In this document: one piece after another, positions 3,001-43,461 of the stretch
Position numbering within the stretch: the stretch's first letter is position 1
Layout: each line of letters opens with the position of its first letter
From: Candidatus Sigynarchaeum calidifontis
Lineage (GTDB): Archaea > Asgardarchaeota > Lokiarchaeia > Sigyniarchaeales > Sigyniarchaeaceae
Length of the DNA stretch: 45,689 nt
Reading direction: 5' to 3'
Assembly: GCA_030587475.2 (NCBI GenBank)
Contig: JAUQYZ020000135.1
Location: 1-45,689, forward strand
Notes under the pieces: generated by a model
What the model was told of the DNA's origin: nothing
Databases searched by the model: none
What the model saw: only the letters and a program-made list of their open reading frames with translations
Made by a program: the position numbers and the translations under genes

Positions 3001-5654
3001 GTGCTTGGGATGGCGACCACTGTTGGTCCGGCAATCGTGGAGGTGCTGTTCGAGAAACGCCCGTCGAAGCACGAGAAATTGTACAAGTAACTCCCTGGTT
3101 GTAGGTAGACAATTCGCTGGTACGCGCAGCCATCCGTGTAGTTGAAGTCGGCCGGGTTCTGCTTGACGAGTGGATACGACGTGCCGTTCAGGTTCACGTT
3201 GATTAATGCAGGGGAATTGTCATCTATGTCCGTGTATATGACGGAAAAGTTGAACGGCGTTGTCTGATTACCCGTCATTGGTGAAACGGATGGCAAAGTG
3301 AGTGCTGGGGCAAAATCGTTTCCGGCAACATCGAGAGTAGCATTGCCACTCCCCGAAATAGCTTTCGCGACGACGTAATAGATCCCGGTTCTCGATGGCG
3401 TGAACGAGATGAGCTCGTCCTGCCCCGTCAATGTTGATGTACTGCTTGCAACTTGCACAGGCTCGCCGTAGGCCGAGGAGGAGCCGTTGTATAGGTGCAA
3501 ATCGAAATCCGCGCCCACGGGAACGTCGAGAGAGATGTAGTACTGGATTCCTGCCATTAAATGCACGTGTCCACCTATTGCATGCTTTGATAACGAGCTT
3601 GTAGCGCTACTACTGAGCAAGTGGGTAATCGAACCGGCTATTTGGACATCGTTAATACAAGCCTCGATCGCTGCATCGACGTTGATCCTGCCATACCCCT
3701 CGTGCACGTCCTTCCCACCCCTGTTCAGCAACGGGCTATACGACGTGTCCACTTCTCGCTGCAAGGGATATGTCTCGGTTGCGGTCATGAGGAGCAATGC
3801 CTTGACGAGCTTTGCCTCGTTACCCGTGAAGTTCCAGTTCTGCCTGCCGCCAAGGGCATCGATGACGAGGTTCGCAGCGCCCGCCACCGCCGGCGTGGCC
3901 ATGGACGTGCCGAGCATCGGTGCCATGTCGTTCGTGAATCCCTCTGTCATGAATGTCTCGGCGTCATTGTCGTTCGTGTCCACGGAGAACATCGAGAAGT
4001 TGTAATAACTCCCACCTGGTGCCATGAGATCAGGCTTGTTGGTATAACCCGTGTAGGATGGCCCACCCTGGCTGCTGAAATCAGTGACCCTGTCGGCATC
4101 GCTCATCGCCGCGACCGTGATCACGTTGTCCGCATCACCCGGGGAGCCAATGTTGTCAGCGCCGGATCCGTCGTTCCCCGCGGCGACCACCGTGACGATG
4201 CCACTATTCACCGCGTTGTTGACCGCCGTGATCATCGAGGTCTGGCCTCCAGAACCGCCAAGACTCATGGAGATCACCGTGATGTTATAGACCATCCGGT
4301 TGGTGATCGCCCAGTTTATCCCGTCCACGATGTCCGAAAGGGTTCCAGAGCCAGATGCACTCAAGACCTTGATGCCGACCAGGCGGGAGTCCGGCGCTAC
4401 GCCTTGCCATCGATTGTTCGAGCCCAGGGCAGGCGCGGAGAACGGCCAGTGGACAATCCCCCTGAAGCGCCACACGGGGTTGTCGCAGTAACCATCGGCG
4501 CCATAGAACTGCATCTCCAACCGCAGCGAGTAATCGCCGAGGGTCCCGGCCGCCGCCGCGATCGTGAGCGTGTCGGTCCAAGACGTGGCCGTGCTCACAT
4601 ACGAGTCGACAACTGTTTCGCCGCGGTAGAGATACGCCCGTATGTACACGCGATCGCCGGACGTGCTATCCGTGAACGTGCAATCGATATCTATCGTGCC
4701 GGGATTCGTGACGTTAAACCTCGCCGCGGTGATAGAAATGGTCTGGCTCGGGATGTAATAACCCGTGTAATCGTAACCCATGCTATAAGTCGCCACGGCC
4801 CGGTTCGAACCATCCAACGAGTAATTGCCAGAGCCCGCGACGATGCCCGAGCAGTGCGAACCGTGCCCGTTGTCGTCGTAGGGGGTAGTGACGCCGCTAA
4901 CCTGGTCGCTCCAGCCAGTTATCTTGTACCCCCCGTTCCCGCTCGAATACCCCGGCGCGAACATGGCATGCGAGTCGTCGATGCCGGTGTCAATGACGGC
5001 GACTGCCGTCGAGGGGTCGCCGCGGAAGCCGTACGTGGACCACGCAAGCGGTCGCAGGTTCATGTTTCTGGAAGCGTAATAGAGCTGGGCTCGCACGATC
5101 CCGTCCTCCTCAACCAAAAATGGAACGTTATTTTTACGAAGGTTAGAGCAGAACGCATCTAGCCCTTCCTGGCTGATGGTACCGGCAAAGCCGTTGATCG
5201 CAACGTCATACCAGCTCTTCAATTTGCCTCCCAGGTCGACGAACGCCGCGATGATACCGGAGATATTTCCGCTCGGGAAGCTCACGACCACGGGAATGGC
5301 ATCGAGCGTGAATTCTCGTTTTTCAGGGATGCTGGCTCTTCCTTCCAAGACTTTTACGAGATCCCCTCCCGATAATAATGCTTGCTGGCTTCTTTTCCCC
5401 ATTTCCATGTCGCTGATCTTCCGCTCCAACGAATCGCTCATGCCGTTCGTATTACGGTCTGCTATGCCGGTGATCTTCTTCCATGACGCGATATCACGAA
5501 AATTCACGTTTATGGAATCATCCACTTCACTGATGACGTCACTATTCCCGGAATTATGCACGTCCGGGGTCATCTTGAGTGTTAAAAAAGTGATAATGCT
5601 GAAGGATACTATAGCAAAAAGGAACATGGTCTTTGTGTTCTTGAGATGCTTCAA
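60..5654 (-). CDS. Giant membrane-anchored S8 (subtilisin-like) serine protease with PPC-like, six Ig-like repeat, NIDO-like, LamG/ConA-like and beta-propeller modules; C-terminus probably continues past the window edge
   Basis: N-terminal hydrophobic anchor; catalytic motifs VIDTGID, HGSHCSG, AAGNDG and GTSMATP; LamG signature FNGLIDEVRIYNRTLS; C-terminal TWGGS repeats. Confidence 0.9.
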   Translation of the reverse strand: MKHLKNTKTMFLFAIVSFSIITFLTLKMTPDVHNSGNSDVISEVDDSINVNFRDIASWKKITGIADRNTNGMSDSLERKISDMEMGKRSQQALLSGGDLVKVLEGRASIPEKREFTLDAIPVVVSFPSGNISGIIAAFVDLGGKLKSWYDVAINGFAGTISQEGLDAFCSNLRKNNVPFLVEEDGIVRAQLYYASRNMNLRPLAWSTYGFRGDPSTAVAVIDTGIDDSHAMFAPGYSSGNGGYKITGWSDQVSGVTTPYDDNGHGSHCSGIVAGSGNYSLDGSNRAVATYSMGYDYTGYYIPSQTISITAARFNVTNPGTIDIDCTFTDSTSGDRVYIRAYLYRGETVVDSYVSTATSWTDTLTIAAAAGTLGDYSLRLEMQFYGADGYCDNPVWRFRGIVHWPFSAPALGSNNRWQGVAPDSRLVGIKVLSASGSGTLSDIVDGINWAITNRMVYNITVISMSLGGSGGQTSMITAVNNAVNSGIVTVVAAGNDGSGADNIGSPGDADNVITVAAMSDADRVTDFSSQGGPSYTGYTNKPDLMAPGGSYYNFSMFSVDTNDNDAETFMTEGFTNDMAPMLGTSMATPAVAGAANLVIDALGGRQNWNFTGNEAKLVKALLLMTATETYPLQREVDTSYSPLLNRGGKDVHEGYGRINVDAAIEACINDVQIAGSITHLLSSSATSSLSKHAIGGHVHLMAGIQYYISLDVPVGADFDLHLYNGSSSAYGEPVQVASSTSTLTGQDELISFTPSRTGIYYVVAKAISGSGNATLDVAGNDFAPALTLPSVSPMTGNQTTPFNFSVIYTDIDDNSPALINVNLNGTSYPLVKQNPADFNYTDGCAYQRIVYLQPGSYLYNFSCFDGRFSNSTSTIAGPTVVAIPSTHAPLLASGNVTPTTGQSQTTMFTFMVTYSDQDNDPADYIRVIINGSTHQMVKVDPGDSNYIDGCVFSYSTLLWAGGHVFSFSCSDGVNSSAIGPFFGPMVSAQTLGGLRNYIMTPGTAYSWLDATLGIRCSMNGADDSYQAVSLPFPFTFYGTNYSTIYICSNGFVSFSPSSSYSNVAFPTSSPTLMIAPFWEDLRCESTCNIFYRSFTAPNRFVVEYQNYYTLGGTLVGTFEVVLYQTGDIYFNYDIVSAVTGQTVGLNYGLNLSYYNLYTGLYAGLNDFSILFRYPRNTYPPTLTGMSITPGSGNQATLFSFDVTYTDLDNNAPQFINVLLNNTPVSMSKVNTGDTVYTDGCAYRYQGFLSPGVYNYSFECADGGYYTATGVVTGLNVIYTNSYSPELAQGRSVPGKGYGNITPVTYSVVYTDLDNNAPAFITVIVDGTACAMVKSIPADTNYMDGCTYIYTTTLASGLSHRYSFNCSDGSNVVNTTTAYGPMFIDISDMAFENGIVAFYPLETSASDYSGYNRNGIPSGMNYQVGAFGNSGIFTGASYIDTTVANGATSYSLCALFRANSFLSNSYIDSPIIDSDRASYYGTGMGVSSTTISMVINNLYFTHPYSFLTGLWYYLVVTFDRQNNLVTSYVNGTMIQQTTVVFSTPTLVNNFFIGRDPAYNYYFNGLIDEVRIYNRTLSGIEVVELMNRINNIRPPALTGDSVNPLTGTQNTLFTFNVTYTDADNNAPQYVNLVVNATNFPMEKVNSADSIYTDGCIYTVSLYLQPGTYEYYFSCNDYGFSIITPLRTGLVVNSTNMAAPILSNARVSPTRGTNTTQFVFIVTYTDADNNMPAFISVTINATEISMSEVDVYDTNAMDGKAYQHSTTLAWGLYRFQINCSDGTFTNASTWVDAPEVNPFLAIPPQYSLYQTWGGSGTEYPYGSWADANYIYTTGYTTSYGVGGDMVLVKWDRSGNVIWYRTWGGSSIE
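322..3315 (-). repeat. Six ~85-aa intragenic repeats (F.F.V.YTD.DNN.P..I.V...M.K...D..Y.DGC.Y...L..G.Y.Y.F.C.DG) arranged as three pairs
   Basis: Visible in translation at about 3060-3315, 2742-3000, 1872-2127, 1555-1815, 630-888 and 322-575. Confidence 0.85.
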
Positions 5655-6849: not shown

Positions 6850-7364
6850 GGAAAGCTCAGCCCTCCTGGCAGTTCTATCGTCGCGGACAAGGTCGTCGTG
6901 GCAAATATGTAGCTCACGTGGAAGTTGATTCCAAGAACGAACGGCGTCGTGCTATTCAAGATCGAAAGTAAAGACCCCGTGTTTAAACTCACGAGCGTGA
7001 CGTTGAACGGGCACTTGTTCGTCCCGAACGGTATGTCCCCGATGTTCGACGTGGAGCTCGTGATCAACGAGCCATTCGAAGCATAGGAGAGGCTGACATC
7101 GATACGGAGGTCCTTCACGTCGAAGCCTATCGCCCCGGAATTGTTGACGTAGGCCGGGATGTAGACAACGAGATGCGTGGCGTTGGAATACGTGCCGACA
7201 TTTGGCACGGTCCTGTTAGGATAAAAACCCCAGCTGAGCATGTATCCTGCTACCATGTTGTAGCCGTTCACGGCGAGCGTACCGATAATGAACAAGGTCG
7301 AGAGCACCGAGATCAATTTCACGACATTGGGATGGCTCACGACCTCCTTTTTCTTGATTGACAT
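6846..7364 (-). CDS. Hypothetical single-TM protein with beta-rich (LEA_2/Ig-like) extracellular domain
   Basis: N-terminal TM after a basic patch, beta-strand pattern, several N-x-S/T sequons; ATG 7364 preferred over the longer track start. Confidence 0.7.
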   Translation of the reverse strand: MSIKKKEVVSHPNVVKLISVLSTLFIIGTLAVNGYNMVAGYMLSWGFYPNRTVPNVGTYSNATHLVVYIPAYVNNSGAIGFDVKDLRIDVSLSYASNGSLITSSTSNIGDIPFGTNKCPFNVTLVSLNTGSLLSILNSTTPFVLGINFHVSYIFATTTLSATIELPGGLSFP

Positions 7365-7436
7365 GCGTGGGTCACTCTGGATGATGGTTCTGATGATGGA
7401 TGACTTATGCAAACCAGTCGTTCATTAATCTATCGT

Positions 7437-9602
7437 TCAATCCAAATCATCCGCGCGTGAAGATCCCTTGGCGAACCGAACCGGCGCGAAAAGATACCTT
7501 GCCCTCTCCTCGTCCTTTTTTATCCCTGTCAAAGGATTACCTCGCAAATCAAGCAGCCGGAGTTTCGCCAGGTGTAGCAAGTTCCCCAATGAGTCGATCT
7601 GGTTGCCGCTCGCGAGGAACTCGCGCAAGTGGGGCATGGTGTCGATTTCCCTGGTGTTTTTCAAGTAGTTGTTGTGCACGTCGACGTGGGACACGGCGGG
7701 GAAGTTGCTGATCCCCTTCAGCGCGCCCAGGTTGTTGTCCGACAAGTCGAGCCGCTCGACGCTCGGGATGGTCGTGTCGTTCTCCAGCTTGACGATCCCG
7801 TTCCCGTTCAAGAATAAAACCTTCAGTCGCTCCATGGCGGGACAATCTTGCAAGTTGTCGAGCTTGTTCCATGCGAGATTCACGGAATCAAGTTTCTGGC
7901 AAGTATCGAGTCCTTTTATTTGCGACATCTTGGTGAACTGGTTCCGGGATAAGTCGAGCACCTCTAAACCCCCGCGAGCAAAGGTAACATCCACGTTTTT
8001 CAAGTTGTTGCAGTGGAGATCCAGGAAATGCACGGGGACTTTCTTGCCAGACGGTTCGAAGTTGGTGAGCAAGTTCCGGGACAGGTCCAGGCACCGCAAG
8101 TCTGGCCAGGTTCCAAGCGACTCGACATTCTTGATCGCGTTATTTGAAAGATCCAAAAACTTGAGCTTGGATAATTCATTGATCGCTGGCGGGATCTCCC
8201 TTAACCGGATCCCGGATAAGCCGATACCGGTGATGCTTCCTTTGTGCAGCATGATCCAGGGTATTTTTTTGAATTCTGGTGGTAACAGCGGGAGAACCGG
8301 TGGCGGCTGCCCGCAATCGAGCACGTGGACGACCGGCAGGGCAGGATCCTTGGGAGGAAGGATCACGGCGAGCGCGTCGACGACGCCACGAGGAACGCCC
8401 ATTTGTTCAAGGGCATCGAGATTCACCTCGCGTCGTTGTTTCCCAGCCGCATCACCATCAAGAACCAGCCCCTGCCAGACTTCCCCGAATTGGACGAGCT
8501 CCTCGCTCGTTATCATTGTCTTGCGGGCGGCATCCAGTTGCTTCGTGATGATGCCCTTTATCTTGTTGACCTTCTCACGATCGAGGGCAGTGTCGGAGAT
8601 TCGCTTTTTCCACGACGTGAACTGGCGATCCAACGCCCACGGGTTCGCCATCTTGAGGTAGGCAAGCACCTTTGAAGCGATGTCCCCGGCTTGCTTATCT
8701 TTCTGCATCCGCTCCCGCAGTAATTCCTCCCTTTCCGTGTCATCAAGCTTGACGCGAGCTGGGCGTTTCGATGCCGGCGTCGTTCGCAAGGTATACAAGC
8801 GCAAGAAAAAATTGGCGTGGACAACTCGCATGTCTCGATTGATGAACGTGGCGACAGTATCGCGATCCATTAACCCGAGCAAATCGAGGACATCATCTCC
8901 CTTGTCTTCGGACATGCTTCCCGCGCGGAGCAGCGCGTCGACGAGCATCGGTTGCTTGCCGTTTCGCGTCAAGAAATCATCAAACACGCGCCGTTTACTC
9001 GCGATGCTACATTCTTTGAGGATGGACGCGCTTTTATGAATCAACCACGCGTGACCTGTCGGGTCATTACAAAGAAGCATCTCGGCAATGGCAAGGGCAC
9101 GCCTTGCCCAGTCGACGTAATCGAGTTGCTTTTCCACGATATCCATGAAGATGTTCGTGAACGAAATCGCACCCAGGGATCCAACGAAACTTGCAAGGAT
9201 TCTCGTGAGCCAGTTGTCCCCGGCTCGTCGCGAGATCGCGTCAACACCGTTGTCCGTGAGAACCAGCTGTAAATTCGTCAGCGGGAGAAATTTCTTGAGA
9301 ACCCGCTCGACAACCACCTTTGTATCCGCTCCTTGGAACAATTGCCAGTTATCGGGGTGTAACAGCACGAATAGCGCCTTGCACTTGTCCAAGATGATGT
9401 CATGGATGCCTGGACGAAGCATTTGCTCGGCAACCTTGTTACCATCCTTGTTGTCGATAACATTCCCTGACGAGTCGAGGATGGTTTCGGTCCCTCCTGC
9501 CCTCCACGTTATTGCTTTATTGAGCACGATACCAAATGGCCGGTCCACATCGGGCTTTATATCTTCGAGATCCTTCCGGATGAGGTCGGCGAGGGAAGCC
9601 AT
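7437..9602 (-). CDS. Leucine-rich repeat protein (helical N-terminal region, C-terminal SDS22-like LRR solenoid)
   Basis: About 10 LxxLxLxxNxL repeats (LKFLDLSNNAI, LRCLDLSRNLL, LEVLDLSRNQF, LRLLDLRGNPL); start may lie up to 9653. Confidence 0.88.
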   Translation of the reverse strand: MASLADLIRKDLEDIKPDVDRPFGIVLNKAITWRAGGTETILDSSGNVIDNKDGNKVAEQMLRPGIHDIILDKCKALFVLLHPDNWQLFQGADTKVVVERVLKKFLPLTNLQLVLTDNGVDAISRRAGDNWLTRILASFVGSLGAISFTNIFMDIVEKQLDYVDWARRALAIAEMLLCNDPTGHAWLIHKSASILKECSIASKRRVFDDFLTRNGKQPMLVDALLRAGSMSEDKGDDVLDLLGLMDRDTVATFINRDMRVVHANFFLRLYTLRTTPASKRPARVKLDDTEREELLRERMQKDKQAGDIASKVLAYLKMANPWALDRQFTSWKKRISDTALDREKVNKIKGIITKQLDAARKTMITSEELVQFGEVWQGLVLDGDAAGKQRREVNLDALEQMGVPRGVVDALAVILPPKDPALPVVHVLDCGQPPPVLPLLPPEFKKIPWIMLHKGSITGIGLSGIRLREIPPAINELSKLKFLDLSNNAIKNVESLGTWPDLRCLDLSRNLLTNFEPSGKKVPVHFLDLHCNNLKNVDVTFARGGLEVLDLSRNQFTKMSQIKGLDTCQKLDSVNLAWNKLDNLQDCPAMERLKVLFLNGNGIVKLENDTTIPSVERLDLSDNNLGALKGISNFPAVSHVDVHNNYLKNTREIDTMPHLREFLASGNQIDSLGNLLHLAKLRLLDLRGNPLTGIKKDEERARYLFAPVRFAKGSSRADDLD

Positions 9603-9713
9603 GGTAGTATCACCAGATCGCGAAGGATGCATCGTCGCGTTGTTTGATAACAAGTGTTCGTCCGCTTCGTCAACGAAAAATGGAGGGTAGGATGATTACA
9701 GGTTTCTCGTGGA

Positions 9714-10858: not shown

Positions 10859-11866
10859 TCACGCGGATCCCTCGCCTTCGACGATGTACTTGGCCATTCG
10901 CCGAAGCTGGTCGAATTTACGAATTTCTTTCTCGAACAAGGGCACTTTCACGACGTCAAACTCGTCCTTGTAGAGATCCTCTATCTCGGCGAGATGCTTC
11001 AGCTGGAACTCGCGCCGGGACTTGCAAAAATTGCATCCGAGATTTTCTGGAAATATCTGGTTCACGATCATGTGCCGTGACGGGATCTGGTAGGAAATCA
11101 GCGCGGACAGCAACCGTTCGGTCTCGTAGATCGCCATGTCCTCTGCGATGAGCACGATGACGAATTCCGTCTTGGCGGGATCTTGCAACTCGCCCTTCGC
11201 GGCCTCGATCGAGTTCTTGAGACGCTCGATCGCTTCCGTGGCGTCGGCTTCGTCGTCCTTGCCCTTGTTGCGCTTGAACATGTTCTTGAACGCGCCCATG
11301 AGCTTGCCGAGCTTGAGCCGCAAGGTGATAAGCTTGCCAATCCAGCTTGACAAGAGCTCGGGGAGACTGAGCAGCCGGAGTGTGTGCCCGGTCGGCGCCG
11401 TGTCGAAGATAATAAGATCGTATTCCGAGTTTTCGAGAAATTCCAAGACCGTGCCGAAGGCCATGGCCTCGTCCGCGCCCGGCGGGCTCATGCCCGCGAG
11501 GTCGCCCAGGTCGCCAAGGAGCGGGATACTCATACCCTCCATCCCGCCGCCCATGGCCATGTCCAGGCCGCCCGCGCCGCCCATCTTCTCTTGTGCTTCC
11601 TTGAACGCCTTGGACGGGCTGATCTCGAGCGCGAAGAGCTTTTCCGTGCCTGGCACGGGGGTCACGGTGCCGGGCTCGAGTTGCAGCCCGAGACTGTCGC
11701 CGAGCGAATGTGCTGGGTCTGTCGAAACGATGAGAACGGACTTGTTCGTGTTTTCTGCAGCCCACAACGCCGAACACGCGGCGGAGCTCGTCTTCCCGAC
11801 CCCACCCTTTCCACCGAAAAGAATGAAGTGGGAATCGGGGCTCGTTAGCAAATCTTTCAGAGCCAT
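10859..11866 (-). CDS. Get3/TRC40 (ArsA-family) ATPase, single-domain
   Basis: GKGGVGKT P-loop, STDPAH, DTAPTGH, Met/Gly-rich helical subdomain, C-terminal CNFC; ATG 11866 (MALKDLL) preferred. Confidence 0.9.
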   Translation of the reverse strand: MALKDLLTSPDSHFILFGGKGGVGKTSSAACSALWAAENTNKSVLIVSTDPAHSLGDSLGLQLEPGTVTPVPGTEKLFALEISPSKAFKEAQEKMGGAGGLDMAMGGGMEGMSIPLLGDLGDLAGMSPPGADEAMAFGTVLEFLENSEYDLIIFDTAPTGHTLRLLSLPELLSSWIGKLITLRLKLGKLMGAFKNMFKRNKGKDDEADATEAIERLKNSIEAAKGELQDPAKTEFVIVLIAEDMAIYETERLLSALISYQIPSRHMIVNQIFPENLGCNFCKSRREFQLKHLAEIEDLYKDEFDVVKVPLFEKEIRKFDQLRRMAKYIVEGEGSA

Positions 11867-12114
11867 ACTCTCATCAAGGGAGGGATGTTCTTGAAGTTCG
11901 ATATTATATCGAGACCTCACGTTGCACGCCCCGATACCAAGCGCGAAGCACGGTTGTTCTCAGAAAGTACCCCGCACGACGCGGATTTTAAGTAAAGAAG
12001 GTACAACCTACTTTTCATGTCATAAAAGGTTTTATTCATTGCGCGGATTCGATCACTTGGTATTAGCATTTTGAACGAGTTAACAACGAGCGAAGGTGAT
12101 TACCCGCACGACCA

Positions 12115-12144
12115 TTTCCCGCCGGTTGCCAGCCGGGCGGGAAA
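12115..12144 (+). promoter_or_regulatory. GC-rich hairpin about 75 nt upstream of hdrA(Sec)
   Basis: TTTCCCGCC-GGTT-gcc-AGCC-g-GGCGGGAAA inverted repeat. Confidence 0.5.
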
Positions 12145-12218
12145 GGAAAGTGCATGTCGATCAAGATCACGAATAGCTGCCCCATGAATTCTCACCGGTA
12201 ACGTTCAGGGAAGCAAAT

Positions 12219-14297
12219 ATGAGTGAAAAGAAAGCAAAAGCTGGTAATATCGAAGCGAAAGCCGAAGCAAAAACTGAAGCGAAACCAGCCGCAGCCGAAG
12301 CGAAACCAGCCGCAGCCGAGGAGAAACCTGCCGAGATAGGTGTTTTCGTGTGCAATTGCGGTATCAACATCGCAGGGGTGGTAAACATTGCAGATACCGT
12401 CGAAGCTGCAAAGAAGATGCCTGGCGTGAAATATGCCGAGAACAACCTTTCCTATTGCACCGAGGCCGGCGCCGTCGCCATCCAGAAGGCAATCGATGAG
12501 TACAAGCTCAAGCGCGTCGTCATCGCTGCTTGCACCCCCAAGACGCATTTACCCGTGTTCCAGAGCGTCCTCAAGGCGGCCAATCTCCCGAAGCGCATGC
12601 TCGAGTTCGTGAACCTTCGCGAGCAAGACGCGTTCGTTCACATGCACGACAAGGACAAGGCGACGGAGAAGGCAAAATCTCTTATCGCAGCTGCAGTGGA
12701 GCGTGCCAAGAACCTCGAGGACATCCCGACCGAGATCGTGGACGTCACCAGGAAGGCACTCGTCATCGGTGGCGGTGTTGCTGGACTCCAGGCAGCGCTC
12801 GACCTCGCGAAGTTGGAATACGACGTGACCCTCGTGGAGAAGACCCCCACAACTGGCGGGAAGATGGCAAAGCTGGACAGGACATTCCCGACCGACGATT
12901 GTTCGATCTGAATATTGGGGCCGATCATGCTCGAGGCGAACCGGAACCCGAAAATCAGGACCTTGACCTACTCGGAAATCGAAGGGTTCTCCGGGTTCGT
13001 CGGAAACTTTGACGTGCGCATCCGGAAGAAGGCTCGATATACAACAAGCAAATGCAATGGATGCGGCGCTTGTTTCGACGTATGCCCCGCGTATCGACCC
13101 CATGACTTCGAATACGGCATGGCCCAGTCCAAGGCGATCTATAAATCCTTCGCGCAAGCAGTTCCCGGCGTCGTTCAAATCGACAAGCAATATTGCATCG
13201 ATTGTGGTCTCTGTGCCAAAGCTTGCGAATTGCAAGCGATCGATTACAACCAGAAAGATGAAATAATCGAGGAGCGATTTGGCGTGGTCGTTGTTGCCAG
13301 CGGGTTCACCGAATACTTGCCTCCAGTTGGCACACTCGGTTTCGGCGAATACGAAAACGTGATCACGCAAGGGCGACTGGAACGCATCCTTGCGCCGAAC
13401 GGCCCGACAGTAGGCCATCTCGTGCGCCCGAGCGACGGGAAGCATCCCACGCGTATTGCCTTCATTCAATGCGTCGGTTCGCGAGATACGCAGTCTAATC
13501 CGCATTGTTGCACGACTGGCTGCCTGCTTTCAGTCAAGAACTCGAAACTTATCAAGCAGCACTACCCCGATACAGAGGTTTACGTGATATTCATGGACCT
13601 CAGGTGCACGGGTAAGATGTCTGAAGAGTATTCCATGGCCACGCGCCAGGAAGGCGTCCACTTCATCCGGTCGAATATTGGCCGTGTATGGGAGGATCCG
13701 AAAACCAAGAATATCGTGCTACGTTTCGAGGACACGATGAATCCAGGCGTGCTCCAGAAGCTCGAGGTTGATCTGCTCGTTCTCACGACGAACATGGTGC
13801 TCGGCGAGGATGGCACGAAACTTGCCAAGATGCTGAAGCTTGACATGTCGCCCGACGGTTTTATGAAGGAATACCACGCGCGCCTCGACCCGATATCGAC
13901 CAAGATCCCCGGCATCTTCCTCGCGGGCACGTGCCAATCGCCAATGACAATCGCCGAGAGCATCGGTCACGCGAAGGGCGCCGCGTCCAGCGCGGCTCGC
14001 ATCTTGCAAGCCAGGAAGTACGAGATCGAGCTCATCCGGGCAGTCGTCGAGAAGCAAGAAGCGTGCTCGAAGTGCTATCGATGCGTGGAGGCGTGCCCGT
14101 ATAACGCGATCTCGATCGATGAGAACGGGAAGATAACCGTCGACGTGATCCTGTGCAAAGGATGCGGGACTTGCTCGAACGTGTGCCGCTCGCAAACGAT
14201 CCAGCTTCGATATTACCGGGATCCCGGCTACGATGGCCAGATCGACGCACTTTTCGCGTCGGTCGTGCCTCAAGAAATGAAGGACTCGAGCAAATGA
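12219..14297 (+). CDS. hdrA: Heterodisulfide reductase subunit A, selenocysteine-containing (UGA at 12909-12911, codon 231; 692 aa)
   Basis: Track ORFs 12219..12911 and 12915..14297 are in the same frame and join as FPTDDCSI-U-ILGP, matching FPTNDCSL-C-ILAP in the paralogue at 20615; CNCGINI, AACTP, GGGVAG, QCVGSR and ferredoxin motifs; SECIS downstream. Confidence 0.93.
12276..12317 (+). repeat. Exact 21-bp tandem duplication (EAKPAAA x2) in the Ala/Lys/Glu-rich N-terminal extension of HdrA
   Basis: gaagcgaaaccagccgcagcc at 12276-12296 and 12297-12317. Confidence 0.9.
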
Positions 14298-14353
14298 GTC
14301 GTGCGCCCAAAGGCAGCGCGCACGATGATGGAGGCAGCAAGCCTTTCTCGAGT
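14284..14353 (+). ncRNA. Eukaryote-type SECIS element (cis-acting mRNA structure) overlapping the hdrA stop codon
   Basis: AUGAG (14294-98)/UGAU (14326-29) tandem G.A core; perfect 8-bp helix UCGUGCGC/GCGCACGA; apical AAA (14309-11); basal helix ACUCGAG/CUCGAGU. Confidence 0.85.
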
Positions 14354-14431
14354 ATATTCCTATCAATAGAAAACCATGCCAGGTCGGCGACGGCCTGGCA
14401 ATCACGATTATAATTGCATCATCAGTAATAC

Positions 14432-14458
14432 CATCAAATTCATCACATTCATCAAATG
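14432..14458. repeat. 9-bp imperfect tandem repeat x3 just upstream of the frhB-like gene
   Basis: CATCAAATT CATCACATT CATCAAATG. Confidence 0.6.
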
Positions 14459-14465
14459 AACCAAC

Positions 14466-15542
14466 ATGAGCAAGGTAATAGTGAAAAAGGGCGACCAGCC
14501 CAATTTTAAAAAGATCATTTCAGAGGTTCTTGATAAAAACAAGTGTTGCGATTGCGGGATTTGCCAGTCAGTTTGTTTTCTTGCTGGAGCTGGAGTGATC
14601 AAGTACGAACGACCTGCCTACCGCGTATACGACGATGAAAAGTGCGTCCGGTGTGGATTTTGCCAGGCTGCTTGCCCCGTGACCTCCTACGACACCAGCG
14701 AATCTGATCACCGGGTCTTCCGGGGTCATGTCGGAAATTACTTGAGTATCCGCTCGTTCACGTCAAAGATCGAGGGTGTCGCCGAGCGGGCGCAAGACGG
14801 GGGTGCCGTGACCAGCATCTTGCTTTACATGATCGACAACCACGTCGTTGATGCGGTTATGGTCACCAAGCACTTGCAAGGATGGGAGCCATCGTCTTTT
14901 CTCACGAAAAATCGTGATGAAATTATCGCGTCTGCGGGAAGCAAGTATGCAACCAACCCCGTGTTCAAGGCGATCACATCGCTCAAGGATCTTCCGCCTG
15001 CGGAAGTGGCCAAGTACGGCGTGAAAAAAATCGACGATCTCCGCATCGCGGTCGTGGGCTTGCCGTGCCAGATATCGGGCCTCACGAAGGTGCAAAATCT
15101 CGGCATCTTTCCGGCGAATCTCATCAAGATCAAGATCGGCCTGTTTTGCTTCAAGAATTATAACTGGATTCGTTTTCAAGAGTTCCTCACGAAAAAACTC
15201 AAGATCAAGCTCGATGATATCAAGAAGATCCGGATTCTCGGGGACATGACCATCACCCTCACCAATGGAAAGGTTTTAACGGTTAAATCCAAGGATTACG
15301 ACAACCTGGTGAACGAGGGATGTGCCTGGTGCAAGGATCTCACGGCGCACGACGCGGACATCTCTTGCGGGAATATCGGTTCCAAGGAGGGGGCCACGAC
15401 CGTCGTCGCGCGCACGAAGAAAGGGCTCGAGATCGTCGACCGCGCGCGGATTGCTGGTTACATGGACGACGCGGGGGTCGTGAACGTGAAGGAAGTGACC
15501 AAACAAGCCCGGATGAAGCTGGACCGGGCAAAGACGGAGTGA
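14466..15542 (+). CDS. Coenzyme F420 hydrogenase/dehydrogenase beta subunit family protein (FrhB/FdhB/FpoF-like) with N-terminal 2x[4Fe-4S] ferredoxin domain
   Basis: CCDCGICQSVC and CVRCGFCQAACP; QDGGAVT, AGSKY, VGLPCQ, IGLFC, GCAWCKD...ADISCG. Confidence 0.9.
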   Translation: MSKVIVKKGDQPNFKKIISEVLDKNKCCDCGICQSVCFLAGAGVIKYERPAYRVYDDEKCVRCGFCQAACPVTSYDTSESDHRVFRGHVGNYLSIRSFTSKIEGVAERAQDGGAVTSILLYMIDNHVVDAVMVTKHLQGWEPSSFLTKNRDEIIASAGSKYATNPVFKAITSLKDLPPAEVAKYGVKKIDDLRIAVVGLPCQISGLTKVQNLGIFPANLIKIKIGLFCFKNYNWIRFQEFLTKKLKIKLDDIKKIRILGDMTITLTNGKVLTVKSKDYDNLVNEGCAWCKDLTAHDADISCGNIGSKEGATTVVARTKKGLEIVDRARIAGYMDDAGVVNVKEVTKQARMKLDRAKTE

Positions 15543-15552
15543 ATGATGCGAC

Positions 15553-16764
15553 ATGACCGAAATACCATCCGCCGTTCAAGATAACTTGCAGAAAGACTAT
15601 GCATCCTTACAAAAGCGAACGCTTCTCTGTTACCAATGCTCGAAATGCACGTCGGTATGCCCGGCATTCCGTATCAACCAGTTCAACCCGCGAAGCTTCA
15701 TCCTCGCGGCCGTGACTGGGGGTATCGACGCCGCCTCGAGGGATGCGACCATATGGGGCTGCCGGAATTGCTCGTCATGCCAGATCTGCCCGATGGGCAT
15801 CGATATCCCGAGCATGGTCCTGCTCGCACGCCTCCATTCGCTCAAGCACAACAACGCACCCCCGGCAGCAAAGATTGGCCATCGTCGTATCTTCAATCTC
15901 GCTCAAAAAATACAAGCAGCATCTCCCGTTCCTCCGGTCGTGAACAAGTGGCCCCTCAACCATCAAAAATTCACCGAAAAGGGCAAGATCGCCCTTTACA
16001 CCGGGTTGATGCCGATCTGGGACAACTTGATGTACAACTACGACCTCAACTTCGTTACCGGCTTGCGTGCCATCCTCGAGGCGATGAACATGGTTGGCGT
16101 TGAACCGGCTATCCCGGCTGGTATCAAGGACAGCGGGCACGACGTTTACTACGGCGGCGACGAGACGACCTTCATCACGTTGGCTCGTTACAACCTCGAC
16201 GTGGTCGAGAAACTCGGCATCGAAACGCTTGTCGTGGTTAATCCCGAGGATTACCACGTCATGAAACACTTGTACCCGAAATACCTCGGCTCGATGGCGC
16301 CCGATGTCGTTTTTTGGACAGATTTCCTCGTGGAGAATGGTTTCGTCGAGAAGCTGAGGTACCAAGCGTACCTTGACATCGAAATTCACGCGGCCTACCA
16401 TGATCCTTGCAAGCTCGGGCGCAGAAGCAAAATATTCGATTCGCCAAGAACGATCCTCGAAAACGTGCCCGGGGTCAAGCTCGTGAAATTCAAGGACGAG
16501 AAAGAACTCGCCCCTTGCTGCGGGGTCACTGCATTCATCGGCTGCGATGATGGATCGCTTTACTTGCGGCACGAGCGCCTCAGGGAAGCGCGCGATATCG
16601 GTGTAGACGTGCTCGTGACGACGTGCCCCTCCTGCGTGTCGCACTATTCCTGCGCCCTCGCATCGCTCCCCCCTCCCAAGGAAGCCCAAGAAGCAAAGCC
16701 CTTGCAAGTGACTGAGCTGGGCACGTTCCTGGGGACGCGACTATTCCATTTCAACAGCAAATAA
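15553..16764 (+). CDS. HdrC/HdrB-like fusion (HdrD-type Fe-S oxidoreductase) with only the second CCG domain intact
   Basis: CYQCSKCTSVCP and CRNCSSCQICP; C-terminal HDPC...CCG...TCPSC; first CCG domain has no Cys. Confidence 0.85.
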   Translation: MTEIPSAVQDNLQKDYASLQKRTLLCYQCSKCTSVCPAFRINQFNPRSFILAAVTGGIDAASRDATIWGCRNCSSCQICPMGIDIPSMVLLARLHSLKHNNAPPAAKIGHRRIFNLAQKIQAASPVPPVVNKWPLNHQKFTEKGKIALYTGLMPIWDNLMYNYDLNFVTGLRAILEAMNMVGVEPAIPAGIKDSGHDVYYGGDETTFITLARYNLDVVEKLGIETLVVVNPEDYHVMKHLYPKYLGSMAPDVVFWTDFLVENGFVEKLRYQAYLDIEIHAAYHDPCKLGRRSKIFDSPRTILENVPGVKLVKFKDEKELAPCCGVTAFIGCDDGSLYLRHERLREARDIGVDVLVTTCPSCVSHYSCALASLPPPKEAQEAKPLQVTELGTFLGTRLFHFNSK

Positions 16765-16810
16765 GCAAGTTAACTCGTGATAATTCCTTTCAACGCTAAC
16801 CGGGTTCAAG

Positions 16811-19800
16811 ATGGCAAAACCGATCAAGAAAAACCTCCTCCCCTCGGATGATCTCTTCAACATATCCGACGCGGTGCTCGTGGTCGGCAGCGGGGCCGCC
16901 GGGATCCAGGCAAGTTTAGACCTATCACGACTTGGTGCAAGGGTTATCCTCGTCGAACGCGGTAAAAACATCGGCGGGCTCATCGCGAAGCTCGATAAGA
17001 CATACGCCACGCACGATTGCGCCGGGATAAATGCCCTCTATTCCATTCAAGACGCTTGGGGGAAAAAATGCTTGCAAATGCAGCACGGGGCATGCGGCAA
17101 GTGCCATATGGCCACGCAAACATACAATAACGCAAACGTGAAGATTTACCAGAATTCCGTGGTCTCGGCCATCGATTATCTCGACGAGGGGAACATCCGC
17201 GTCACGATCGAGAAGCAGGTCCTCGGCATTGACGAAGAGCGGTGCACTAATTGCGGGGCTTGCTACGAGGTATGCCCTGTACGGTTTGACGAAGACATCA
17301 ACTGGTTCGATGCGGGCCTCGGTACGAGGCGGGCTGTGAACACGCCTTTCCCCGGTGCAGTCCCTCCCACGCATTCGATAGAGCACGACAGATGTATCTA
17401 CGTGCAGAATGGTCTTTGCGGGAAATGCAAGGATATATGCCCCACGAATGCCGTTACATTCGAGTTTAAGAAGGAGCTGCACGAGTTCACGGTCGGGGCG
17501 ATCATCTTCGCCACGGGTGCCAACCAAGCGCACCCGTTCGACTACGACAAGTTTCTCGGCCACCATCCCGACGTCTTGAATGGCCTACAGTACGAGCGGC
17601 TTGCCAGCGAGAATGGCCCGACCAAGGGAAACATCATCAAGCTCTCCAACCACAAGCCTGCCAAGCGCATCGCGTTCGTCCAGTGCGTCGGTTCCAGGAA
17701 CACGCGTCCTGGCGGCATGCCATACTGCAGTACCGTGTGTTGCATGTATGCTATCAAGGAAGCCGACATGGCCAAGGAGAAAGATCCATCGTGTGAAACT
17801 TATATCTTCAACGTCGAGAACCGGGCTTATTTAAAAGGTTTTCACGAGTATTATCTCCGCGCCAAGCGAGATCACGGCGTGAAATTCATCCAGGGACGCG
17901 TTGCCAGCGTTCGTAAAGATATAAAAACTGATGATTTGATAGTCGAATACGAGGACGTCGAAGCTGGCGAGATCAAGTCAATGCCCGTCGATCTCGTGGT
18001 TCTCTCGACTGCTCTGATCCCGAACGTCGACGGCATCTCGCGGATCCTGGGTGTCCCCTTGAACAAGTACCATTATTTCGACAAGCCCGTCCTCGAGGAT
18101 CTCGAACATAAGGGGATCTATTTCGCCGGCTTTTGCATGCATCCGATGGACATCCCGTCGTCGGTCATCACGGCCGACGCGGCGGTCGCCAAGGTCTCCC
18201 GGCGGTTGTTCCACGCCCTCAAGGCCAAGCAGCAAGAACCGGGCGAGGTCGTCGACGAGATCAAGCTCTACGGGACTCCACGCATCGGCGTGCTCGCGTG
18301 CCAGTGTGACAAGGAATCCGCGAGGGTGTTAAATAATGAAGCCATCATCAGCGCGATCCGGAACATTCCCGGGGTCGTTGCCGTCGAAGCTAGCGTATTC
18401 GACACGTGTACCGAGTCCCGATCCTTCCTAGCCAAGATGATAAAGGAACACCGGCTCAACCGAGTCGTGGTCGGCGCGTGCTCGCCCAGGACATACGGCT
18501 CCATCTTCACCGAGGCCGTCAAGGAGGCGAAGTTGGATCCGAACTTGCTTGAAATGGTCAATATCAGGGAACAAGCCGCGTGGGTTCATCAAAACGAGCC
18601 TGAAGCAGCCACGAAAAAGGTTATCGATCTCCTGGCGATGGGAGTTGCGAAAAACCGGGAGCTCACGTATCAAGAAAACAAGAAAGTGCCAATGACAAAG
18701 GCAGTGCTCGTGATTGGCGGTGGTCCCGCTGGTATCGTCGCCGCGGACAATATCGCGAGCCAGGACATAAAGGTATACCTCGTCGAGCGGGAAAACAAGC
18801 TCGGCGGCGCGACGAACAAGATTTCCCGCAAGTTCTTGTTCGACGACGAGCAAGTCATCATCGACAAGATCGAAGCAATCGTCGCCCGGTTTCCAAAGAA
18901 CAAGAACATCGAAGTGCTCACGAAATCAAGAGTTGTCGGCGTTTCTGGCTTCGTGGGTAACTTCCAGGTGCGGATCGACGCTGCTGGTGTAGAGAAAAAT
19001 GTCCGTGTCGGCTGCATCATCGTCGCGACAGGCGCGTCGCAAGATCCAAACTATGCCAACGTGGTACAAGGAAAGTCAGATCGCGTGTTCAACCAGGAGC
19101 AGTTCGAGCAGTTGCTCATCAAGGGCGACCTTCAAGGCATGAAGAAATTCGCGTTCATCCAATGCACGAACCAGCGGGCCGATGGCAACATCAAGCCCGA
19201 GTTCAAGAACTGTTCCGGCATTTGCTGCAAGATCACGCTCAAGCAAGCCATCAAGATCAAGGATCTGGTGCCCGATGCCGAGATACACATCATCCAACGC
19301 GGCATGCAACTGTCGGGCGAGGTGTATTACGAGGACATTCACCACCAGGTGCAATCATTCGCCGCGATCGAGCGGTACTCCCCCGAGCAATACCCGAAGA
19401 TCATCGCCGCGGGCGACAAGGTTCGCGTCTCGTTCCGGGAGCGCAACGTCGGCGAGCAGCTCGACCTCGATCTCGATGCCGTGATCCTCGCTACGCCTTA
19501 CAGATCAGCGCCTGGCACCCAAGAGCTCGGTGCCTTGCTAAAGGTGCCCGTGATGCAAGCCGGGTTCTTTTTAGAGGCGCACGTGAAGTTTCGGCCAAAT
19601 GATTTCGTCGTTGACGGCATGTTCCTCGCCGGGGATGCCCATTGGCCGAAGACCATGATAGATGCCGTCTCGCACGGTCTTGCGTCGGCCGCGCGTGCCA
19701 GTGCATTCTTGACACGTGGTTACGTGGAAATCGAGGGCACGGTCGCTAGTGTGGACGAAAACGCGTGTATCGGTTGCAAGAAATGCCAGGATGCATGCCC

Positions 19801-20023
19801 ATTCGACGCCATCGACATGGTCAGCGTGCCGCGCGAGATCGAGGGGCAAATCGTGAGCGTGCTCAAGGCGCGGGTGAACGAAGTTCTTTGTAAAGGCTGC
19901 GGTACGTGCACGGGCGGTTGTCCGACGCACGCTATAGACCAAATGAACTTGAAGACCGACCAGATTTCCGGAATGATCAAGATCTTGTTTCCCGTGTTTG
20001 ATGCCACGAAAGTCGAGAATTAA
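16811..20023 (+). CDS. hdrA: Large HdrA-family protein with two FAD-binding modules (1070 aa)
   Basis: VGSGAAG and IGGGPAG motifs; QCVGSR..YCSTVCC and QCTNQR..NCSGICC; internal CQC/GACSP domain; inserted and C-terminal ferredoxins. Confidence 0.9.
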   Translation: MAKPIKKNLLPSDDLFNISDAVLVVGSGAAGIQASLDLSRLGARVILVERGKNIGGLIAKLDKTYATHDCAGINALYSIQDAWGKKCLQMQHGACGKCHMATQTYNNANVKIYQNSVVSAIDYLDEGNIRVTIEKQVLGIDEERCTNCGACYEVCPVRFDEDINWFDAGLGTRRAVNTPFPGAVPPTHSIEHDRCIYVQNGLCGKCKDICPTNAVTFEFKKELHEFTVGAIIFATGANQAHPFDYDKFLGHHPDVLNGLQYERLASENGPTKGNIIKLSNHKPAKRIAFVQCVGSRNTRPGGMPYCSTVCCMYAIKEADMAKEKDPSCETYIFNVENRAYLKGFHEYYLRAKRDHGVKFIQGRVASVRKDIKTDDLIVEYEDVEAGEIKSMPVDLVVLSTALIPNVDGISRILGVPLNKYHYFDKPVLEDLEHKGIYFAGFCMHPMDIPSSVITADAAVAKVSRRLFHALKAKQQEPGEVVDEIKLYGTPRIGVLACQCDKESARVLNNEAIISAIRNIPGVVAVEASVFDTCTESRSFLAKMIKEHRLNRVVVGACSPRTYGSIFTEAVKEAKLDPNLLEMVNIREQAAWVHQNEPEAATKKVIDLLAMGVAKNRELTYQENKKVPMTKAVLVIGGGPAGIVAADNIASQDIKVYLVERENKLGGATNKISRKFLFDDEQVIIDKIEAIVARFPKNKNIEVLTKSRVVGVSGFVGNFQVRIDAAGVEKNVRVGCIIVATGASQDPNYANVVQGKSDRVFNQEQFEQLLIKGDLQGMKKFAFIQCTNQRADGNIKPEFKNCSGICCKITLKQAIKIKDLVPDAEIHIIQRGMQLSGEVYYEDIHHQVQSFAAIERYSPEQYPKIIAAGDKVRVSFRERNVGEQLDLDLDAVILATPYRSAPGTQELGALLKVPVMQAGFFLEAHVKFRPNDFVVDGMFLAGDAHWPKTMIDAVSHGLASAARASAFLTRGYVEIEGTVASVDENACIGCKKCQDACPFDAIDMVSVPREIEGQIVSVLKARVNEVLCKGCGTCTGGCPTHAIDQMNLKTDQISGMIKILFPVFDATKVEN

Positions 20024-20034
20024 GGGGATAACAA

Positions 20035-20457
20035 ATGGGCAAAAATCAATATAAACCGAAGATATTGGCATTTTGCTGCAATTGGTGCTCGTACGCGGGC
20101 ATCGACGTCGCGGGGCTCACGCGCGCCCAGTACCCCGCGTCGATACGGTTGGTCAAGGTCATGTGCATCGGCAGGATCCATCCGGATCTCGTGCTCGAAG
20201 CATTCGCCCGGGGGGCAGATGGCGTCCTCGTCGTTGGCTGCAACGTCGGTGATTGCCATTACTTGCACGGTAATCAATTGGCGACCGAACGAATGGCGGA
20301 GATGGGTAATCTGCTTGAAGGCATTGGTCTCGATCACCGGCGCATCAAGATCGGGTATATCTTCGCTTACGAGGGCAAGAAATTTTCCGAACTCGTGACC
20401 GAATTTACCGACGGGATTTCTGCCCTTGGACCGAACGTGATCAAGGTCGCCACGTGA
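20035..20457 (+). CDS. mvhD: MvhD/VhuD/FlpD [2Fe-2S] adaptor subunit
   Basis: FCCNWCSYAG, VMCIGR, GADGVLVVGC..GDCHY..GN. Confidence 0.93.
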   Translation: MGKNQYKPKILAFCCNWCSYAGIDVAGLTRAQYPASIRLVKVMCIGRIHPDLVLEAFARGADGVLVVGCNVGDCHYLHGNQLATERMAEMGNLLEGIGLDHRRIKIGYIFAYEGKKFSELVTEFTDGISALGPNVIKVAT

Positions 20458-20614
20458 AACCCTTCTGATCCATGCTCGATATTTTTAATAAATCTGGACT
20501 TGAATGTTTTTATTGAACATGAAATTGTAAAGCATAGCACGAAAGCGTACAAAAAACCAGCTCTTCGTACTCCTTTCACGATCCACGAATTCACGAACAA
20601 TCATCGCGAGGAAC

Positions 20615-23600
20615 ATGTCGGCTAAACCTGGCAGCAACGTGCCGAAGTCTGGCGAGGTCCTGGTCGTGGGAATGGGCGTCGCGGGCATTCAAGCGAGCCT
20701 TGACCTGACACGCCTTGGATTCCACGTCACCGCAGTTGAAAAGGGGAAAACCATCGGAGGAATAATGGCCCAGCTCGATAAGACTTTCCCCACGAACGAT
20801 TGTTCACTTTGTATTCTGGCTCCAAAAATGGTCGAAGTATATCGCGATCCGAACATCACGCTTTACCAAAATACCGACATCAAGAAGATTGAATATCTGC
20901 CGGATGGAAACATAAAAGTATTTCTCGAAAAACAGAACATGGGCATTAACGAGGCAGCGTGCAAGAACTGCGGCGAATGTAACAAGGTATGCCCCATCCA
21001 ATACGACGAGCCCATCACGTGGTTCGACGCTGGCCTCGCGCGCCGCAAGGCGGTCAACATCCCGTTTCCATCCGCGGTTCCCCCCGTGTATGCCATCGAG
21101 AAAAACCGGTGTTTAAAAGCCAAGCACAACGCGTGTGGCAAATGCCAGGCCGCTTGCCCATCCAACGCAATCACCTATGATTTCAGCGTTCAAACAATCG
21201 AGCTCGTCGTCGGCGGCATCATCTTCGCGACCGGTTGCACGCCCATGGAACCCAAGCGATTCCCGCGGTTCCTCGGTGGCCACCCCGACGTTCTCAGCAG
21301 CATCCAGTTCGAGCGGCTCATGTGCGCGAGCGGGCCGACCGGCGGCGAGATCATCAAGCGCTCCAACAAGAAGCACGCGAACCGCATCGCATTCATCCAG
21401 TGCGTCGGCTCCCGCTCGAAACGCCCCGGCGAGCTCGAGTATTGCTCGTCGGTCTGCTGCATGTACGCGATGAAGGAGGCGCAAATTACCAAGGAACACG
21501 ATCCCCACGTCGAGTGTTACATCTTCAATCCCGAGAACAGGGCCTGTGCCAAGGGCTTCCACGAGTATTTTTTGCGGTCCAGGAATGAATACGGGGTAAA
21601 ATTCATGCCTGGCCGCGTGTCCCGTGTTCATGATTTCAAGGATTCACCAGATCTTGCCGTGGAATTCGAAGACGACATCACCGGCGAGCCCGCCGAGCTG
21701 CGCGTCGACCTGGTCATCCTCGCAACGGGACTCGTCCCGAACACGCAAGATGTCTCGAAAGTGCTCGGCATCGGCTTGAACAAGTACGGGTATTTTGACA
21801 CCCCGGTCATCGAGGACCTCGAATCGAAGGGGATCTATCTCGCCGGTTATGACATCAAGCCCATGGACATCCCGCTATCGGTCGTGTCCGGCAGCGCGGC
21901 AGCGGCGAAGGTCTCGCGGCGTTTACACGCTGCCCGGTTTTCACGCATTGTCACGCCGAAACTACCCAAGGAAAAAAAGGTGACAAGCGCGGACGAACCG
22001 CGGATCGGCGTGATGGTATGCCACTGCGGTATCAACATCGGGCGCACGATCGACTGCGAGCGCGTGGCCAAGGAGATCGCTAAAGTGCCCAACGTCGTCG
22101 TGGCTGATCACAACAATTACACGTGTAGCTCCGATTCGCAAGTCACGATCAAGAACATGATAACCGAGCATAACTTGAACCGGTTCATCGTGGCATCATG
22201 TACGCCGAGGACACACGAGGCGTTGTTCCGTGGCACGCTGCAAGAAGCGGGCCTGAACCCGTACTTGTTCGACCTCGTCAACATCCGGGAACACGCGTCG
22301 TGGGTGCACATGACCGAGCCACAAGCCGCGACGGAGAAGGCCATCGAGCTCATCAAGATGAGCATCGGCAAGGTACGGGAACTCGGTCCCCAGCAGAAAA
22401 AACAAATAAAAATAACCAAGTCCGTGCTCGTCATCGGTGGCGGCCCAGCGGGATTGTTCGCTGCGGATAACCTGGCAAATCAAGAATTTGACGTGTTTCT
22501 CGTCGAGAAGGAAGCCATGCTTGGCGGGGCGACCAGGACGTTCACCCGCAAGTTGCTGCTCCCCGACGAGAGGCTCGCGATCAACCGCATGGAAGGGATA
22601 ATTCAGCAACTTGGAGGAAATCCACGCGTGCGGATCTTCTTGAATTCACGCGTGGTGGACGTGTCCGGCTTCGTTGGCAATTACAAGGTCAAGATCGCGC
22701 ATGACGGCAAGATTGAAGAGGTCGACATCGGCGGCATCATCGTCGCCACCGGCGTGGCCCAGGATCCGAATGTCGCCATCGCGACGAGGGCTTCTTCCCC
22801 GCGCATCTTCACGCAAGAGCAATTCGAGCACGTGTTGGACGAAGGCAAGCTCGATGGCATCAAGCGCGTCGGGTTCATCCAATGTTCAGGCCAGCGCCAC
22901 GATGGAAGCATAACTTCCGATTTTCCGAACTGTTCCGGGATCTGCTGCAAGATCACGCTCAAGCAAGCGAAGCTCATGCGGCAGCTCGAGCCCGACGCGA
23001 GCATCTATATAATGCAACGTGGGATGAATCTCAGCGGGGACGTGGAGAATGAGGCTCTCTTCCAGGATGTGCAGCGATATGCTGGCGTGGCACGGTATGA
23101 TCCTTCAGAATACCCTGATATCAAGGTGGTAGGGAAGGAATTGCATGTTACATTCAAGGAGCGGAATTCGAGCGAGCAGCTCGACTTGGCCCTCGATGCG
23201 GTCGTGCTGGCCACCCCGTACAAGTCGGCAGCCGGCACGAAGGACCTCGCCATGCAGCTCAAGGTGCCCGTGACCCAGGATGGTTTCATGCTCGAGGCAC
23301 ACGTGAAACTGCGCCCCGTGGACTTCGCAACCGAGGGTATCTTTGTTGCCGGCGGGGCACAATGGCCCAAAGCCTTGGAAGATGCCATTTTACAAGGTAT
23401 CGCCGCTTCAGGCAGAGCAATTGGCTTGCTCGCAAAGGGATTTGTCGAAGCCGAAGGAATCACTGCAGAAGTCGACGAGTCCATGTGTATCGGGTGTCGG
23501 AAATGCGAGTCGGTATGCCCGTACAAGGCCATCGAGATGGTACCACGTGAATCCATCATCGACATGGAACGCGTGACGGTCTATAAAGCCCACGTGATCG

Positions 23601-24273: not shown

Positions 24274-24291
24274 TCCTTGTTTTTGGATTAA

Positions 24292-24468: not shown

Positions 24469-24507
24469 TCGATGCGTTCAAGTAGGAAAAACACGTAGGA
24501 CGGATTG

Positions 24508-43455: not shown

Positions 43456-43461
43456 ACTAAC

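Follow-up and report, generated by a model that had tools for sequence, protein, structure and literature searches.

A stand-alone hdrA gene with a predicted selenocysteine and its own three-armed SECIS element in a lokiarchaeal genome

Introduction

The whole stretch of DNA analysed here, 45,689 nucleotides of a contig of Candidatus Sigynarchaeum calidifontis (hereafter the window), contains two open reading frames, 12219-12911 (230 aa) and 12915-14297, that share one frame and are separated solely by the TGA at 12909-12911. The question raised by this locus is whether the two frames are separate genes, the remains of a pseudogene, or a single HdrA in which the UGA is read as selenocysteine (Sec). 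The initial annotation had proposed a 692-aa Sec-HdrA with a eukaryote-type 3' SECIS element. Such proteins and elements are already known (Mariotti 2016, PMC4989117; Huang 2024, PMC11227280), as that annotation had stated, and Sec-HdrA is ordinary for Lokiarchaeia; the text of Huang 2024 lists HdrA among its five widespread Asgard families. The less ordinary parts of the locus are its stand-alone arrangement and a third helix in its SECIS element, which has shown predictive value in genome scans. We assign a probability of about 0.9 to the whole explanation, namely a single 692-aa Sec-HdrA, delivery of Sec by EFSec, a three-armed element, and a stop codon placed within the core of the gene's own SECIS.

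The probable selenocysteine codon of hdrA

The gene and its relevant positions are as follows.

12219-14297, plus strand: hdrA, 692 aa with one predicted Sec (U231); N-terminal Cys domain, FAD fold and two ferredoxin domains
12276-12317, plus strand: two identical 21-nt copies in an Ala/Lys/Glu-rich N-terminal extension
12909-12911, plus strand: in-frame UGA, candidate Sec codon in a canonical CxxU site, conserved in relatives and replaced by Cys in paralogues

Reading the internal UGA as Sec yields a 692-aa HdrA with its terminal stop at TGA 14295-14297. The residues around the internal codon form the motif DDCSI-U-IL, and the same motif carries a Cys in the paralogue at 20615-23785 (motif start at nt 20786), which agrees with the position given in the initial annotation. 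The full-length protein aligns with the solved HdrA 9sfi_A over residues 39-679 (phmmer, E=1.6e-190), where 9sfi shows an unknown residue X at the position aligned with codon 231. Residues 40-680 match NF040770 at 703.6 bits, which is below the cut-off of that model, a longer HdrA2-MvhD fusion. Of the 61 genomes in the order, 59 have close HdrA matches. The nearest genomes are MAGs of Promethearchaeota (Lokiarchaeia), and 'Ca. Sigynarchaeum springense' is among the members of the 90% cluster to which the N-terminal fragment belongs.

All five components of the Sec machinery were identified in the genome, the fifth as a probable match. The tRNA-Sec gene lies on contig C88. SepSecS scored 430 bits (cut-off 225), EFSec scored 241.6 bits (cut-off 242.25), and the SelD gene contains a TGA of its own. 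The best PSTK match (E=1e-29) scored 104, far below the cut-off of 290, with a partial domain scanned. Under Huang's rule, by which genomes with at least three machinery components are taken as Sec users, this genome is a Sec user. Only two frames with an L7Ae domain were found in the genome (89% complete), of 123 and 125 aa, and neither is SBP2-sized.

A genome-wide reassignment of UGA to Trp or Cys, which would make the hairpin behind hdrA irrelevant, has a practically negligible probability, as TGA ends 546 of 956 long ORFs (57%) and the only tRNA found with a UCA anticodon has the shape of tRNA-Sec. TGA is thus the commonest stop in the genome, and recoding at hdrA has to be site-specific. 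A separate feature of the tRNA complement is a group of about twenty tRNA genes packed into 6 kb and all on the same strand (contig C212 of this genome, 11601-17652), comprising about half of the tRNAs called in the assembly.

The databases call hdrA as a split gene or pseudogene, in which UGA 231 would be a genuine stop and a protein of 456-460 aa would begin anew behind it. Identical hdrA DNA occurs in two further assemblies and is called there as 230 + 456 aa, the kind of splitting that the initial annotation had anticipated. This reading is scarcely credible, since codon 231, at the same conserved Cys, is TGA in all 29 hdrA relatives read in detail (three families), the genome has the full Sec machinery, a SECIS lies behind the gene, and solved homologues are one chain. 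No TGC or TGT was seen in place of the TGA at 12909, either in the other assemblies or in any relative examined. From these comparisons, UGA 231 is almost certainly decoded as selenocysteine.

Three further positions in the N-terminal part of HdrA (sites 47, 80 and 105; window 12357-12533; loci L012-L040) toggle between Sec and Cys. All three are TGC here, while a genome of the same genus has TGA at 47 and 105, and nearly all relatives have TGA at 47. This lineage therefore seems to have reverted to Cys at these sites.

The SECIS element and the hdrA stop codon

The stem-loop that the initial annotation had placed about 1.4 kb downstream, with AUGA, AAA and tandem G.A pairs, was recovered with its core 1382 nt downstream of the Sec codon. 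Its parts are listed below.

14284-14290, plus strand: 5' arm of the lower helix P1, inside the last hdrA codons (pair probabilities 0.72-1.0)
14294-14297, plus strand: AUGA core, of which UGA 14295-14297 is the hdrA stop codon; same overlap in genomes G001, G002 and G003
14298-14326, plus strand: upper helix P2 of 9 bp (14298-14306/14318-14326) with an 11-nt loop and AAA at 14309-14311
14327-14328, plus strand: 3' GA of the tandem G.A core
14330-14346, plus strand: third helix P3 of 6 bp with a 5-nt loop (14336-14340) and the G-Y-R triplet at 14337-14339
14347-14353, plus strand: 3' arm of P1, directly abutting P3 (from the fold and pair probabilities)

The element has the published lokiSECIS dimensions (AUGA, 9-bp stem, 11-nt loop, GA), and the combination of AUGA, nine of nine pairs, an 11-nt loop and GA has a single match in the 5-Mb genome, which is the hdrA element itself, and none in two Markov simulations. 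The folding z-score of 14280-14355 is -3.0. Three of the first five bases of the P2 loop are adenines. The loop ends in G-C rather than in the 'ultraconserved' final G, as it also does in other elements of the same family, and an alternative pairing is predicted for the G of this G-C. The window's element escaped a strict scan in which a G was required at the last loop position, so this criterion was dropped; a loose IUPAC pattern was useless, giving thousands of matches. An Rfam scan of 11500-25000 gave no SECIS match at E<=10, and the text of PMC4989117 likewise reports no Rfam SECIS match for Loki elements.

The hairpin is kept in the orthologues of all four genomes of this organism's family, where the stems are wholly different between genera and still paired, as would be expected of a conserved element in UGA-containing orthologues. 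P1 pairing across elements was found in 61 of 73 cases against 38 expected, which is a weaker test than that of P3 below. The hairpin, its AUGA, its AAA and its G.A pairs thus stand as first described. Its assignment to the 3' untranslated region does not, because the UGA of the core is the stop of the gene and the 5' arm of P1 lies in the last codons; the third helix, the loss of vhuD and the overlap of stop and core are absent from the initial annotation.

The frame stays open for 23 codons beyond the terminal UGA, up to a TAG, so recoding of this UGA as well would add a second Sec and a 23-residue tail. We regard this as very improbable: the terminal UGA is the core itself, orthologues conserve base pairing rather than coding sense beyond it, and in VhuU.1, where this overlap has been published, the UGA is a true stop. 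The terminal UGA is therefore taken to remain a stop codon, being part of the core. Neither a sigma-70 promoter nor a plus-strand terminator was matched at the locus by a model that is not archaeal.

Separation of hdrA from vhuD

The genes surrounding hdrA include several of Hdr type.

10859-11920, minus strand: ArsA/GET3-type ATPase, divergently upstream of hdrA
14466-15542, plus strand: FrhB/FpoF-like F420-binding subunit, at the place where other families have Sec-vhuD; also behind the orthologue in G001 and G002
15553-16764, plus strand: HdrD-like protein (4Fe-4S and CCG)
16811-20023, plus strand: long HdrA-like paralogue without an internal TGA
20035-20457, plus strand: MvhD, Cys form
20615-23785, plus strand: second long HdrA-like paralogue, the one with Cys at the Sec-equivalent site
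23725-24273, plus strand: second MvhD, Cys form (domain 23863-24270)

According to the text of PMC4989117, vhuD lies behind Asgard hdrA in every case, one SECIS serves both genes, and the hdrA stop is UAA or UAG. The text of Huang 2024 has 'almost all' Asgard hdrA genes sharing the vhuD SECIS, which leaves room for exceptions. In our annotation the tandem rule held in 26 of 26 loci of two other families and at the second locus of the present family. The latter (L047, on contig C47 of the studied genome) is of the published tandem type, in which hdrA has two TGA codons and shares a single SECIS with Sec-vhuD, the core of which is the vhuD stop. The studied hdrA orthologue departs from this rule in all four genomes of its family, as there is no vhuD behind it, it has its own SECIS, and its stop is the core UGA.

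The stop is TGA in all five hdrA genes that have a SECIS to themselves and TAA or TAG in all 29 that share a downstream SECIS, although the five TGA stops are weak evidence alone because 57% of the genes here end in TGA. Once apart from vhuD and provided with its own SECIS, hdrA would be free to end in UGA. The stand-alone hdrA offers a natural test of Mariotti's minimal-distance idea, as a UGA stop is tolerated where the SECIS lies at the gene's own end.

In the phylogenetic tree the four stand-alone genes form one clade (100/100), and together with a fifth copy from G002 they are sister to the tandem-type genes (99/98). The fifth copy (L044:6534-7700) has a TGA stop and a SECIS to itself; a vhuD with another SECIS follows 680 nt further on. 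This copy looks like a possible intermediate, in which the SECIS was duplicated before the genes were separated. The FrhB-like, HdrD-like and Cys-MvhD genes downstream of the stand-alone hdrA suggest an F420-linked Hdr-type complex.

In G002 and G003 a P-loop ORF with a similar start takes the place of the ATPase upstream of hdrA. Other genes in the window encode a 1864-aa subtilase with a LamG domain (60-5654, minus strand), a leucine-rich-repeat protein (7437-9653, minus strand), a GH20 glycosidase (26001-28691, plus strand) and a phosphate-type ABC transporter with a double membrane domain (40383-44364, plus strand).

Conservation of the third helix

A total of 75 Asgard elements of hdrA, vhuD and selD genes, representing eight families across the phylum, were surveyed for P3. 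A hairpin at this position was found in 73 of the 75 cores, 16 of them placed by hand, against 30 expected from dinucleotide shuffles. Hairpins with G-Y-R at the 3' end of the loop, a motif defined after viewing the first Loki sequences, were found in 71 of the 75 (4.8 expected); the genomes are kin and such counts overstate independence. In a MAFFT alignment of 37 elements selected for short loops, the P3 stem has 61 changes on both sides against 23.9 in shuffled alignments (0/500), and in the same alignment its score is 0.66, compared with at most 0.25 in slid controls. RNAalifold recovered P3 unprompted. The most common loop triplets among 98 are GCA (43), GCG (26) and GUG (14). In the UGA-UGA family described below, whose cores were located without the use of P3, the helix is present in 25 of 25 cores (3.5 expected). 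No core was found in 13 of 15 Cys-type mvhD genes. P3 is thus a conserved third helix by both pairing and covariation. It has no description in the texts, figures apart, of PMC4989117, PMC11227280 and the review PMC13188914, where two stems only are given.

Two more specific models of the loop were rejected. P3 is not generally closed by a GNRA tetraloop, as the fourth base is often G, U, C or paired and only G-Y-R is steady, and in only one of 64 cases does the P2 loop hold an exact complement of the P3 triplet, as a pseudoknot of the two would require.

P3 might instead be a passive filler of a two-stem lokiSECIS that shortens the 3' internal loop or protects the mRNA end and takes no part in recoding. 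Published models perform well without it, the loop (3-9 nt) and the linker before the helix (1-7 nt) vary in length, and a 3' P3 is missing from five vhuD elements with degenerate cores in the non-Loki family f10 (L087, L090, L091, L093 and L094), four of these five being unparsable and outside the 75. On the other hand, G-Y-R is kept at the 3' end of the loop across eight families and several gene families, which a filler would not need, and the helix lies inside P1 and not at the transcript end. A passive P3 is therefore possible, though we consider it unlikely, and a role of the loop triplet as a docking site is favoured. In four of the f10 vhuD elements a GCA-looped hairpin is present, but on the 5' side of the core.

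Proposed mechanism and comparison with known systems

In the proposed mechanism, Sec-tRNA(Sec) would be made by the archaeal/eukaryal route (PSTK, SepSecS and SelD), and EFSec would bring it to UGA 231 under the control of the element at the end of hdrA. This element is predicted to be a three-armed RNA in which P2 with its AAA loop adjoins the G.A core and P3 abuts the lower helix P1; its helices follow the order, and possibly the geometry, of a k-junction. The terminal UGA would escape recoding as a ribosome that reaches the core must unfold the signal, an explanation modelled on Mariotti's minimal-distance argument. By homology to HdrA of Methanococcus maripaludis (PMC13518236), Sec231 and Cys228 may form a redox relay between FAD and the N-terminal cluster.

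The element shares with the lokiSECIS and Loki Sec-HdrA, as described in the text of PMC4989117, the AUGA, the 9-bp stem, the 11-nt A-rich loop and the GA, together with a canonical Sec site, a position beside the stop codon, the apparent lack of SBP2, and a core that doubles as a stop (VhuU.1). The locus differs from the tandem described there in having an frhB-like gene in place of vhuD, a SECIS that belongs to hdrA alone, and the core UGA as the hdrA stop. The third helix is absent from that text, and the last loop base is C here whereas it is G there. The Asgard type I eSECIS-like elements, as given in the texts of PMC11227280 and the review PMC13188914, are alike in core, upper stem and loop sizes and do not require the final G, whereas the PMC11227280 model has two stems with an internal loop and no conserved nucleotides around the core.

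Eukaryotic type I SECIS elements (RF00031; as presented in the text of PMC11227280) have a similar tandem G.A core with AUGA, apical adenines and far-downstream action. The present element has a shorter upper stem, a third helix and no Rfam match, and no SBP2-sized L7Ae protein was found in the 89% complete genome. At the level of secondary structure only, it resembles the k-junction (Wang 2014, PMC4005666) in that tandem G.A pairs lie 3' of a loop and the non-bulged strand bears a third helix. The k-junction is, however, known from TPP riboswitches and rRNA and not from SECIS elements, and the linkers vary here. The Methanococcal Sec-HdrA of M. maripaludis has the same CxxU site, with a Cys-Sec bridge between FAD and the N-terminal cluster, but it uses the GAA/A archaeal SECIS type and serves methanogenesis; the partners here are FrhB-like, HdrD-like and Cys-MvhD proteins.

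The link between archaeal SECIS elements and the ribosome without SBP2 is called an open question in the texts of PMC4989117 and PMC11227280, and P3 with its fixed loop triplet provides a precise mutation target for it. A conserved P3 also alters the picture of the eukaryotic SECIS ancestor. A broader and rather improbable proposal, which we offer tentatively, is that the Asgard SECIS is a k-junction whose P3 G-Y-R loop docks the ribosome, EFSec or tRNA-Sec in the manner of SBP2, that the eukaryotic two-stem SECIS arose by loss of P3 when SBP2 arrived, and that several unlisted archaeal selenoprotein families exist, one with Sec-Sec.

P3-guided search for selenoprotein genes

P3 sharpens genome scans and exposes selenoprotein families beyond the reach of homology-based surveys; a coding-potential scan for in-frame TGA returned too many ordinary gene junctions to be of use. 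As a filter, P3 reduced 314 candidate cores to 45 in a relaxed scan, and a strict scan gave ten matches that include three already known elements and three new gene candidates. The scans recovered four known-type selenoprotein loci. The relaxed scan also recovered an MvhA/FrhA-type Sec gene that was unused in building the model. This small MvhA/FrhA C-terminal (VhuU-type) gene, with a Sec motif and a three-armed SECIS, is located on contig C15 of the studied genome (about 340-700, plus strand).

Two of the strict-scan matches sit behind a protein of about 150 aa with two consecutive TGA codons (L116:2447-2899, minus strand; L117:2987-3292, plus strand). Homologues of this UGA-UGA family (L119-L147 and L153-L156, with GC-U-U and AD-U-U subtypes) were found in 25 of the 221 genomes searched, all from the Loki order, together with four more relatives. 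The motif is exactly TGA-TGA in all 27 loci read. A conserved tail of 32-50 aa follows it, in which changes are biased to the third position (0.45/0.33/0.60), and most of the loci have only a short overlapping ATG frame. Homologues that lack the UGA keep the tail behind a Cys. A SECIS core lies 109-136 nt past the second UGA in 25 of 29 genes, and all 25 cores have P3; where two genes of the family are in tandem, the upstream gene lacks an element of its own, its stop being TAA. The databases truncate these proteins at GC or AD. One database homologue (P0007), annotated under code 4, has W-G-W-W at this motif, which suggests three UGA codons.

Neither Pfam nor NCBIfam gave a match for the UGA-UGA protein. 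Its predicted structure (pLDDT 87) gave weak beta-grasp matches, the best being CysO (Z 5.3, rmsd 3.5, 74 aligned). The family is absent from the 119 families in the text of the 2026 review (PMC13188914) and is a candidate for an unlisted, beta-grasp-like selenoprotein family of Loki genomes.

A second candidate is a small HesB/CC-Se-like protein (L114:3456-3767, plus strand; L149-L152) with one TGA (YRS-U) and a three-armed SECIS. Conservation of this gene was seen in five genomes from two Loki families, and the protein weakly matches NF041239 (E=0.02). Neither this nor the UGA-UGA family is among the seven Asgard families in the text of Huang 2024. Finally, the relaxed scan marked a tiny membrane-protein frame ending in GG-U-HG, accompanied by a three-armed element, on contig C193 of the studied genome (about 7330-7600, plus strand).
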